Of a stretch of DNA of 64,000 nt, positions 14,742 through 55,267 are shown one piece after another. The notes beneath the pieces are model-generated. The model was not told the origin of the DNA. It was given only the letters and a program-made list of their open reading frames with translations, and made no database searches. The stretch is from a virus. Location of the stretch: positions 16,458 to 80,457 of IMG/VR virus record IMGVR_UViG_3300035145_001165; one strand, 5' to 3'. Every line of letters starts with the position of its first letter. The stretch's first letter is position 1. The position numbers were made by a program, and so were the translations under genes.

Positions 14742-14813
14742 CTCCCCCTCCTGGGATCGAACCAGGGACCAAACGATTAACAGTCGTTCGCTCTACCGCT
14801 GAGCTAAGGAGGA
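14742..14813 (-). tRNA. tRNA-Asn (GTT)
   Basis: TCCTCCTTAGCTCAGCGGTAGAGCGAACGACTGTTAATCGTTTGGTCCCTGGTTCGATCCCAGGAGGGGGAG folds as a cloverleaf. Confidence 0.95.
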
Positions 14814-15917: not shown

Positions 15918-16002
15918 TGCGAGTGGCGGGACTTGAACCCGCAAGAACGCTACGTTCGGCAGATTTTAAGTCTGATGTGTTTACCAATTTCACCACACTC
16001 GC
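15918..16002 (-). tRNA. tRNA-Leu (TAA)
   Basis: GCGAGTGTGGTGAAATTGGTAAACAC...GACTTAAAATC, long variable arm, GGTTCAAGTCCCGCCACTCGCA. Confidence 0.93.
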
Positions 16003-32432: not shown

Positions 32433-32506
32433 AGCCACACGTCGGACTTGAACCGACGACCTACGGTTTACAAAACCGTTGCTCTATCCAGCTGAGCTAG
32501 AGTGGC
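32433..32506 (-). tRNA. tRNA-Thr (TGT)
   Basis: GCCACTCTAGCTCAGCTGGATAGAGCAACGGTTTTGTAAACCGTAGGTCGTCGGTTCAAGTCCGACGTGTGGCT. Confidence 0.93.
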
Positions 32507-39487: not shown

Positions 39488-39513
39488 AAAAAAAGAGGGG
39501 TGACAACCCCTCT
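39488..39513 (-). terminator. Rho-independent terminator
   Basis: AGAGGGG-TTGTCA-CCCCTCT followed by a T-tract. Confidence 0.85.
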
Positions 39514-39671
39514 CAAGAACTGATCTTCCAGTTTTTATTGCCACGTGACTTGAGATCAACCCACTTGGCATAGTGTACACCACGGTACGTTAAGAACGCG
39601 AATGTTCTATCTGGATCGTGTTTAGCAGGATCATAGTCTGGAAGGTCATATTGAAATCTGACCTTCAGCAT
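39513..39671 (-). CDS. YRG-motif (DUF4278-like) small protein, 52 aa
   Basis: Not in track; MLKVRFQYDLPDYDPAKHDPDRTFAFLTYRGVHYAKW...; GAGG upstream. Confidence 0.75.
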   Translation of the reverse strand: MLKVRFQYDLPDYDPAKHDPDRTFAFLTYRGVHYAKWVDLKSRGNKNWKISS

Positions 39672-39680
39672 TACCTATCC

Positions 39681-39848
39681 TCACTTGGTATAGGTATGAC
39701 CTCTATAGCAGAAAGTACCGTGTACCTCGTCAGCATCACCTTGCTTGCACTCAAACTTGACACCGCGATAGGTAGTCATAGCAATCTGTGCATCGTGGAG
39801 AGCTGCTGCTTTCTTGATCTGCTTTTTGATTAGAGTAAGTGTGTTCAT
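39681..39848 (-). CDS. DUF4278-like small protein with two YRG motifs, 55 aa
   Basis: Not in track; MNTLTLIKKQIKKAAALHDAQIAMTTYRGVKFECK...FCYRGHTYTK. Confidence 0.85.
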   Translation of the reverse strand: MNTLTLIKKQIKKAAALHDAQIAMTTYRGVKFECKQGDADEVHGTFCYRGHTYTK

Positions 39849-39885
39849 TGTACTGAAATAATAGGGTTGGTTAAAACCCGTTCCT

Positions 39886-40056
39886 TCAGTCGTTTGCGTC
39901 CCAATAGTGACTACACTCAGGCACGGATTCCTTTACGGTCTCCACTAACTCCACAACAATGTGAGGAGGAACCTCTGCTCTGTTCTTTTGGATCCTGAGC
40001 ACTAATGCATCAGCATCAGAACAGATCATATTTGCATAGAGTAAAAACTCAACCAT
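39886..40056 (-). CDS. Small protein (56 aa) embedded in the second aptamer
   Basis: MVEFLLYANMICSDAD...VPECSHYWDAND; ATG at 40056. Confidence 0.7.
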   Translation of the reverse strand: MVEFLLYANMICSDADALVLRIQKNRAEVPPHIVVELVETVKESVPECSHYWDAND

Positions 40057-40093
40057 TGGGATGAACGCTCCGTTCCGCGACTTACTTGCGTCC

Positions 40094-40294
40094 TCAGGTA
40101 AAGGTACCGCTACATTGACCTTCCACTTTTGTCTTGAGATATCCAATCAGATTCCACTTAGATCGTTGATCTAGGTTGGGATCCATTTGAATCTCCACTC
40201 GACGTTGGAGGAACCTTTCACAGGACATATGCCAACCATAAGGATTGGCGTCATCGTGATGGGCAAGGGTCAATGCCAACAGCAGACTTACCAT
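40094..40294 (-). CDS. Small protein (66 aa) embedded in the first aptamer
   Basis: MVSLLLALTLAHHD...MSCERF...EGQC; hydrophobic N-terminus. Confidence 0.7.
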   Translation of the reverse strand: MVSLLLALTLAHHDDANPYGWHMSCERFLQRRVEIQMDPNLDQRSKWNLIGYLKTKVEGQCSGTFT

Positions 40295-40311
40295 TGGATG
40301 AACGTACAGAC

Positions 40312-40341
40312 ATTATACGATGTCTTGTACTATGTAGTCAA
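40312..40341 (-). promoter_or_regulatory. Sigma70-type promoter for the riboswitch transcript
   Basis: TTGACT-18 nt-TATAAT; predicted +1 near 40305, at the aptamer 5' end. Confidence 0.8.
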
Positions 40342-40368
40342 GGTGTTTGGTATACTACTATACCAAAT

Positions 40369-43899: not shown

Positions 43900-44008
43900 A
43901 AGTAAGACCATCAGGGAAATGGTGGAGTTACTATTTCCTCACCACCCTCGGGTGAGGATATGAGAGACGTGATTTATACACCCTAGAGGTCTCGGTTTGT
44001 GGGGTGTT
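43900..44008 (-). ncRNA. PhotoRC-II-like cis-regulatory RNA in the psbA leader
   Basis: ACACCC/GGGTGT stem with GAGAC/GTCTC pseudoknot, TCCTCACC/GGTGAGGA and ACCAT/ATGGT hairpins directly upstream of psbA. Confidence 0.8.
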
Positions 44009-44079
44009 TACAACAGTCTAAAAAACGTTACGTTTCTTAACCGATGATTTATTTAGTATACAGGAGTTCGGTTTTCCTG

Positions 44080-55195: not shown

Positions 55196-55267
55196 CAGGT
55201 CCACTAGGAATCGAACCTAGAACATCCGCTTAGAAGGCGGGGGTTATATCCGTTTAACTATGGACCC
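55196..55267 (-). tRNA. tRNA-Arg (TCT)
   Basis: GGGTCCATAGTTAAACGGATATAACCCCCGCCTTCTAAGCGGATGTTCTAGGTTCGATTCCTAGTGGACCTG. Confidence 0.9.

Follow-up and report, generated by a model that had tools for sequence, protein, structure and literature searches.

Riboswitch aptamers are regarded as compact, non-coding elements of 5' leaders, and search tools and curated models have been built accordingly. Protein genes placed in the loop of a conserved RNA fold are familiar from group I and group II introns, self-splicing mobile elements whose ORFs encode endonucleases or maturases, and SgrS/SgrT is a dual-function RNA in which, as with the uORFs of B12 switches, a single transcript carries both a regulatory RNA structure and a small ORF that is translated. 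To our knowledge, the ORF is not enclosed by an aptamer helix in either of the latter two systems. An interplay between riboswitch and uORF is reported for the B12 switches of Mycobacterium tuberculosis (Kipkorir et al., 2024, via bioRxiv 10.1101/2024.07.19.603033).

Among the glutamine riboswitches, RNAs of the glutamine-I class (RF01739), such as the leader of Synechocystis gifB/IF17 (PMC6212724), are composed of CGUUCA, a hairpin, the linker ACG-AAGUA, the helix P3 and GAAGGAACG, precede DUF4278/YRG-type genes and probably act as translational ON switches in which a segment of the core pairs with the ribosome site. In the glutamine-II class (Downstream-peptide motif, RF01704; PMC6698751) the pocket also lies on a CGUUC:GAACG helix, YRG peptides are again associated and assembly from separated pieces is possible; it folds as a pseudoknot, lacks a three-way junction and has no gene within the aptamer. 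Glutamine doublets, of which 157 have been counted, were treated as separate riboswitches with pseudo-cooperative control, with no mention of a shared P3 or of ORFs (PMC9481103). For phages, a table of Rfam hits includes hits of ~92-101 nt in four cyanophages and, without comment, a hit of 235 nt in S-ShM2 (PMC9964418). Genes inside a glutamine aptamer were not found described in Klahn et al. (2018), in the phage papers that mention glutamine riboswitches or by other full-text searches; Ames and Breaker (2011) and Ren et al. (2015) might mention long inserts.

The locus considered here lies in the window, i.e., the whole 64-kb stretch of DNA that was analysed, which is part of a T4-like cyanomyovirus whose close DNA relatives are Synechococcus and Prochlorococcus phages. 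It shares with glutamine-I the core strands, the position upstream of YRG-type genes, whose DUF4278 matches are here weak, and, probably, the ON mode of action; it differs in that its hairpin loops house whole, presumably translated genes of 49-75 codons, a second, permuted junction probably lies inside P3, and the curated model misses the window form. Like the doublets, it presents two sets of glutamine-type cores in one leader; unlike them, its cores are probably nested, with a common covarying P3 and one presumed expression platform downstream. Against the glutamine-II model RF01704, short forms of the first core reach 24-30 bits. As in the introns, a conserved RNA fold must close around a protein gene, but in the window locus neither splicing nor mobility enzymes are in evidence, and the start codon forms part of a stem. 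The published 235-nt hit of S-ShM2 spans the embedded ORF of that phage. That genes are nested in the aptamer hairpins is held here with high confidence.

Operon parts and assignment of the leader

All elements of the operon are encoded on the minus strand, and coordinates are those of the window:

40350-40363, minus strand: GTA-N8-TAC palindrome of NtcA-box type, 8 nt upstream of the -35 hexamer
40341-40312, minus strand: sigma-70-type promoter TTGACT-18-TATAAT (11 of 12 matches, promoter prediction)
40300-40304, minus strand: CGUUC, 5' strand of the outer P1 and part of a putative first glutamine site (pairs with 39883-39879, p = 0.93)
40287-40298, minus strand: 5' strand of hairpin P2a with the ORF1 start codon (sequence, duplex test, window fold)
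40094-40294, minus strand: ORF1, 66 aa, PHROG 6471, syn9 gp196 family (dN/dS 0.17)
40091-40102, minus strand: 3' strand of P2a with the ORF1 stop codon (sequence, duplex test, window fold)
40083-40090, minus strand: linker CGCAAGUA on the 3' side of P2a, consensus CGGAAGUA (comparison with relatives)
40078-40082, minus strand: AGUCG, 5' strand of the shared P3 (covariation and window fold)
40063-40075, minus strand: middle hairpin GAACG-GAG-CGUUC, equivalent of an inner P1 and candidate second glutamine site (p = 0.85)
40052-40061, minus strand: 5' strand of hairpin P2b with the ORF2 start codon (p = 0.82-1.0)
39886-40056, minus strand: ORF2, 56 aa, PHROG 504, syn9 gp197 family (dN/dS 0.28)
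39899-39908, minus strand: 3' strand of P2b (sequence, duplex test)
39888-39898, minus strand: linker CGCAAA followed by CGACU, the 3' strand of P3 (alignment, covariation)
39879-39887, minus strand: GAAG followed by GAACG, the 3' strand of the outer P1 (Rfam alignment of a relative, window fold)
39853-39858, minus strand: UUUCAG just 5' of the ORF3 start, presumed expression platform (complementary to CUGAAG of the core, 39889-39884)
39681-39848, minus strand: ORF3, 55 aa, YRG peptide, PHROG 545, weak DUF4278 match
39513-39671, minus strand: ORF4, 52 aa, second YRG peptide, PHROG 6192
39493-39514, minus strand: intrinsic terminator closing the operon (terminator prediction)

The -10 hexamer lies 7 nt 5' of the first CGUUC, and the predicted transcription start (~40305) places the 5' end of the RNA at P1; a distance of 7-8 nt between -10 hexamer and CGUUC was found in 71 of 91 relatives. 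The NtcA-type palindrome occurs in 82 of 110 related loci (L002-L128), mostly beginning 58-60 nt upstream of the first CGUUC, and this conservation suggests that the operon may read 2-oxoglutarate, via NtcA, besides glutamine. An inverted repeat (40325-40320 with 40313-40308, minus strand) encloses the -10 hexamer, and in relatives its arms differ in sequence yet stay complementary. It resembles the promoter-early stem-loops of T4-type phages. Directly 3' of the outer P1, a 5-bp terminator-like hairpin with a U-rich run was observed (39864-39879, minus strand), and relatives carry a covarying small hairpin at the matching site.

The first-pass annotation had placed YRG/DUF4278-like genes behind the aptamers, which agrees with the YRG motifs of ORF3 and ORF4 and their matches to PHROG 545 and 6192; their DUF4278 scores (19.5 and 12.6 bits, respectively) lie below the cut-off of 25.3. 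Elsewhere in the window, a PhotoRC-II RNA was detected at 43923-44019 (minus strand, 79.5 bits), as well as four tRNA genes (14742-14813, 15918-16002, 32433-32506 and 55196-55267).

No glutamine riboswitch was matched by Rfam, at the gathering threshold or at E <= 10, in the window, in the four close relatives L001-L004 or in the whole 80-kb record, a result attributable to the long inserts and not evidence against homology. Natural relatives with short loops served as a deletion series and were scored against RF01739, for which the cut-off is 35 bits. S-PM2 has the same flanks and two short hairpins (33.3 and 24.4 bits); in S-ShM2 the first hairpin is short (27.4 bits) and the second carries an ORF. 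A natural relative with two short hairpins (L023) reaches 43.6 bits, above the cut-off, and its core is identical to that of the window at 74 of the 77 symbols compared. These scores bear out the earlier proposal that the tandem glnA-type halves are glutamine-I cores.

Individual elements of the class can be followed in the window. Both strands of the RF01739 P1, CGUUC and GAACG, occur twice; the P2 hairpin that directly follows CGUUCA keeps its pairing across inserts of 138-234 nt; and the linker ACG-AAGUA, P3 and GAAGGAACG (the E-loop region) make the outer junction fit the consensus. The inner junction lacks the GUA and GAAG consensus segments and so may not bind ligand. The binding site for glutamine is the groove of the CGUUC:GAACG helix together with the linker after the hairpin (PMC6698751). 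Since both junctions keep these ligand-contacting parts, two candidate glutamine sites per RNA are plausible from the sequence.

Two junctions and the hairpins that hold the genes

The first-pass annotation had drawn two tandem aptamers, each closing its own P1, an arrangement that is not favoured by the present data; a nested fold with a shared P3 is preferred instead, and the cores are probably nested and not side by side. In this fold P1 is closed by the first CGUUC and the last GAACG, and the two segments in the middle, GAACG and CGUUC, make a hairpin of their own, the middle unit GAACG-GAN-CGUUC being itself hairpin-forming. Rfam aligns the short-loop relative L023 as a single aptamer, with the outer CGUUC:GAACG as P1 and the remainder inside P3; the score of 43.6 bits belongs to the whole unit and the single halves fall below the cut-off. 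RNAalifold predicted the nested fold from 25 relatives with two short hairpins, and a fold constrained to be side by side was 2-3 kcal/mol worse than the nested one in five short forms and in the window. According to the partition function of the window RNA, the outer P1, which spans 426 nt, has p = 0.93, and the first P1 proposed earlier p = 0.03.

P3 receives one strand from each core (40082-40078 with 39892-39888 in the window) and covaries: its outer pair is AU in 17, GC in 4 and GU in 3 relatives, its inner pair GC in 8, UA in 5 and AU in 3, and none is unpaired. The eight-pair form of P3 includes two conserved C.A mismatches. The strands of P1 are invariant in all relatives, so that covariation of P1 cannot separate nested from side-by-side pairing.

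The motifs and pairings listed in the first-pass annotation were all recovered in the minus-strand sequence, with CGUUC at 40304-40300 and 40067-40063 and GAACG at 40075-40071 and 39883-39879. P2a comprises 3 + 6 pairs (40298-40296 with 40093-40091 and 40292-40287 with 40102-40097). As had been proposed, it sets the start of ORF1 opposite its own stop: A and U of the start codon (40294-40292) lie in an internal loop that faces the stop codon (40096-40094), and its G pairs with C40097. P2b consists of the expected 10 pairs (40061-40052 with 39908-39899) and buries the start codon of ORF2 (40056-40054), and the C-terminus of ORF2, WDAND and the stop, is indeed encoded by the conserved RNA core. 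In most cases the start codon has two or three of its bases in pairs.

The pairing of start with end, predicted to be kept in homologues, covaries across the ORF. At positions 3-5 of both hairpins covariation exceeds that of permuted partners (p <= 0.0002; 3-4 pair types), and positions 1-4 of P2b are paired in 57 of 57 unique stems among the matches listed, with up to four pair types, kinship among relatives inflating both the pairing and the permutation statistics. In short-hairpin forms P2 is 100% paired. Native end-to-end duplexes average -14.4 and -12.7 kcal/mol vs -7.6 and -7.8 kcal/mol with swapped partners. Multiple pair types without mismatch, despite this kinship, are strong comparative evidence for the P2 pairing.

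When the 432-nt RNA of the window was folded without constraints, P2a formed with p = 0.66-0.96 and P2b with p = 0.82-1.0. The inserts are also more structured than permutations of their synonymous codons (z = -2.6 and -2.8, with 72-76% below -2), compared with z = -0.9 and 16% below -2 for random coding pieces of the window; the adjacent YRG ORFs give z = -1.9, and the excess of structure is thus only partly specific to the inserts.

Embedded proteins and distribution of the arrangement

Purifying selection on the embedded ORFs, anticipated in the first-pass annotation, was found when dN/dS was calculated on the ORF interiors, in the ORF1 family (0.17, n = 18) as well as in the ORF2 family (0.28, n = 34). 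In both, variation is highest at the third codon position and length differences within the family are multiples of three. The N-terminal extension of ORF1 has a pN/pS of 0.29 vs 0.25 for the core; it is as constrained as the core, which supports the start codon within P2 as the site of initiation. Synonymous change is absent from the last five codons of ORF2, as expected if the RNA core rules there. By these coding signatures, ORF1 and ORF2 are real genes.

AlphaFold2 (AF2) predicted helical hairpins of the same topology for both proteins (pLDDT 79), from input alignments composed without the proteins of GenBank-phage loci. In ORF1 a Cys25-helix-loop-helix-Cys61 hairpin comes after a hydrophobic N-terminus, and in ORF2 the hairpin is Cys12-helix-loop-helix-Cys48; a Cys pair and a hydrophobic N-terminus are common to 108 of 108 inserted ORFs among the matches listed. 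Comparisons of three ORF families with hhalign gave probabilities of 65% (E 6e-5), 76% (E 2e-5) and 14% (E 2e-3), always aligned Cys to Cys, and one family was found in either hairpin. With profile links that are weak to moderate, the mini-proteins of ORF1 and ORF2 appear to make up one loose family. Searches of Pfam, of the PDB with Foldseek and of the ESM Atlas gave no match that indicates a function, and the PHROG families are unnamed.

A homologue of the ORF1 core was also encountered in the Prochlorococcus podovirus P-GSP1, as an unannotated ORF of 45 codons between hli and psbA (L330:516-653; 97% probability, E 8e-11). It has no riboswitch or aptamer flanks and begins at the position of the conserved internal Met23 of the ORF1 family.

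The distribution of the arrangement was explored by a scan of IMG/VR with the junction motif, which returned at least 120 loci, 112 of them unique units. In 109 related units among the matches listed, hairpin contents are bimodal, 3-47 nt or 138-234 nt with nothing between, and combine as long/long (24), long/short (8), short/long (52) and short/short (25). All 108 long inserts among these matches contain an ATG ORF of 49-75 codons, which starts 9-13 nt after the C of CGUUC (except for two, at 16 and 21 nt) and ends in the 3' strand of the hairpin or with its stop codon inside the core. Sampling based on the protein gave at least 488 ORF1 homologues, of which the best 80 all lie behind CGUUC and 79 are then followed by the core. 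The layout thus recurs in relatives far beyond chance.

GenBank has 49 phage records with the ORF1 family and 306 with the ORF2 family, every one from a cyanophage; the Prochlorococcus myovirus P-HM2, among the carriers, has a junction that differs. Only one cellular-genome match among the at least 120 listed has both glutamine-type cores beside the junction, the 3767-nt contig L172 of a MAG labelled Acetobacteraceae, which is probably a phage contig misbinned with a bacterium. The remaining cellular-genome matches among those listed are chance matches.

Proposed control and its alternatives

The core segment CUGAAG is complementary to UUUCAG or CUUCAG beside the ribosome site of the YRG gene. 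Cores that read CUAAAG occur only with U opposite (0 of 27 with C), and CUGAAG occurs with C or U. This pairing fits the ON mechanism proposed for gifB (PMC6212724). ORF3 of the window lacks the GGAG ribosome site present in most relatives, and neither ORF1 nor ORF2 has a Shine-Dalgarno sequence. The transcript is predicted to start at P1, which would leave ORF1 only CGUUCA and a few bases as its leader; ORF2 is arranged in the same way behind the middle hairpin. Two candidate elements were discarded. A Shine-Dalgarno-like GGAG in the loop of the middle hairpin is unconserved, relatives among the matches listed having GGAU or GGAA there, and a pairing of GUUCAU in the first core (40298-40303) with AUGAAC at the ORF3 start (39843-39848), seen in the minimum free energy fold of 467 nt, is available only to YRG genes that begin with MN.

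The scheme proposed for this operon builds on the observed anatomy and its conservation, on the covariation of P2a, P2b and P3 and on the coding status of the ORFs. The leader of the four-gene, presumably early operon would be one integrated riboswitch of glutamine-I type with two three-way junctions and a common P3. The outer junction would join P1 (first CGUUC with last GAACG), P2a and P3, and the inner one the other end of P3, the hairpin GAACG-GAG-CGUUC and P2b. As the hairpins close around genes, glutamine sensing and translation of the ORFs should compete on the same RNA. Glutamine would stabilise both CGUUC:GAACG helices and thereby make ORF1 and ORF2 inaccessible for initiation, and CUGAAG would meanwhile be held in the junction, which would leave the YRG (IF17-like) genes with an open ribosome site. 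When glutamine is low, or as long as transcription is ongoing, ribosomes would load on ORF1 and ORF2 and their passage would keep the sensor unfolded, leaving CUGAAG to pair with the YRG ribosome site. One RNA would in this way produce opposite outputs for inner and outer genes.

The putative reciprocal control by glutamine, with inner genes off and YRG genes on, is close to an even prospect, leaning slightly to the negative side. The complete two-way toggle, in which an interlocked two-site sensor turns the hairpin genes off and the genes behind them on with feedback from ribosomes, is put forward more tentatively still. Published probing of glutamine riboswitches, as reported in PMC6698751, indicates that the hairpin stems are already formed before ligand is bound and that the main effect of glutamine is to stabilise the CGUUC:GAACG helix. 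Together with the predicted ligand-free stability of P2a and P2b, this suggests that masking of the start codons may not depend on glutamine; if masking is constitutive, translation of the inner genes would be limited to a co-transcriptional window. Taken as a whole, the integrated nested riboswitch with its putative glutamine control is the explanation we favour, with moderate confidence.

Other explanations account for parts of these data. ORF1 and ORF2 might be passengers, small genes that settled in insertion-tolerant loops to borrow a promoter, translated mainly co-transcriptionally and independently of glutamine; the riboswitch would then control only the YRG genes, and the P2 pairing would be kept for folding of the sensor. 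The interchange of short-loop and ORF forms on identical cores, the presence of the same ORF family in either hairpin, the P-GSP1 homologue outside any riboswitch and the stems preformed without ligand in the glutamine class (PMC6698751) all agree with this explanation, which is nevertheless rather unlikely, as the inserted ORFs share the two-Cys pattern and hydrophobic N-terminus in 108 of 108 cases among the matches listed, their start codon occupies a fixed stem position directly behind the ligand-binding strand, and the inserts exceed synonymous permutations in structure (z -2.6/-2.8 vs -0.9 for random coding pieces). It is also conceivable that the act of translation is what matters, ribosomes on ORF1 and ORF2 holding the sensor open as on a leader peptide or timer. 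Ribosomes at the ORF2 stop would melt P3, the outer P1 and the helix that sequesters the ribosome site, and YRG expression would report translation status or time after transcription. The ORF1 stop is inside P2a. That of ORF2 (39888-39886) is part of P3 and is separated by 3 nt from the outer P1 strand and by 38 nt from the start of ORF3 downstream; both positions are in keeping with such a device. Typical leader peptides show no protein conservation like that seen here (dN/dS 0.17 and 0.28, an invariant Cys pair, confidently predicted folds), and short-loop forms work without any ORF, which makes this explanation improbable.

Two independent, side-by-side aptamers, with the complementary P3 segments in at most a tertiary contact, would be chemically possible, given that the P1 sequences are identical and allow either pairing, and would accord with the review from the Breaker laboratory that treats glutamine doublets as pseudo-cooperative tandems (PMC9481103). 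The probability of this arrangement is small in view of the 2-3 kcal/mol cost of the constrained fold, the nested RNAalifold prediction, the Rfam score of 43.6 bits obtained by the whole L023 unit with its halves below the cut-off, and the covariation of P3 between the halves. The missing Rfam match of the window would be expected if the sensor were dead in ORF-bearing forms and the halves persisted only as boundaries for recombination or cassettes; such a relic is very improbable, since conservation of the core equals that of short forms, translated parts included (the five terminal codons of ORF2 are free of synonymous change), and P2 and P3 still covary.

In the window locus and its relatives, a well-known sensor class accommodates real genes as inserts of 140-230 nt. 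The ORF-bearing forms, which escape standard scans, occur in hundreds of metagenomic contigs and in sequenced cyanophages, of which at least 49 carry the ORF1 family and at least 306 the ORF2 family. If the two-way toggle is true, a riboswitch aptamer would here for the first time be known to contain protein genes, their coding RNA would double as an extended arm of the sensor, and the locus would constitute a cassette system whose conserved core strands allow small genes to shift from one hairpin to another. Metabolite sensing, folding of an RNA of >400 nt and translation would be coupled on one molecule, where co-transcriptional folding and the competition between ribosome and structure become directly testable. 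Considered with the conserved NtcA-type box, the operon suggests a phage module that may read both 2-oxoglutarate, through NtcA, and glutamine, with IF17-like peptides and two-Cys mini-proteins as its products, and which bears on how cyanophages handle host nitrogen while infecting cells in the ocean.
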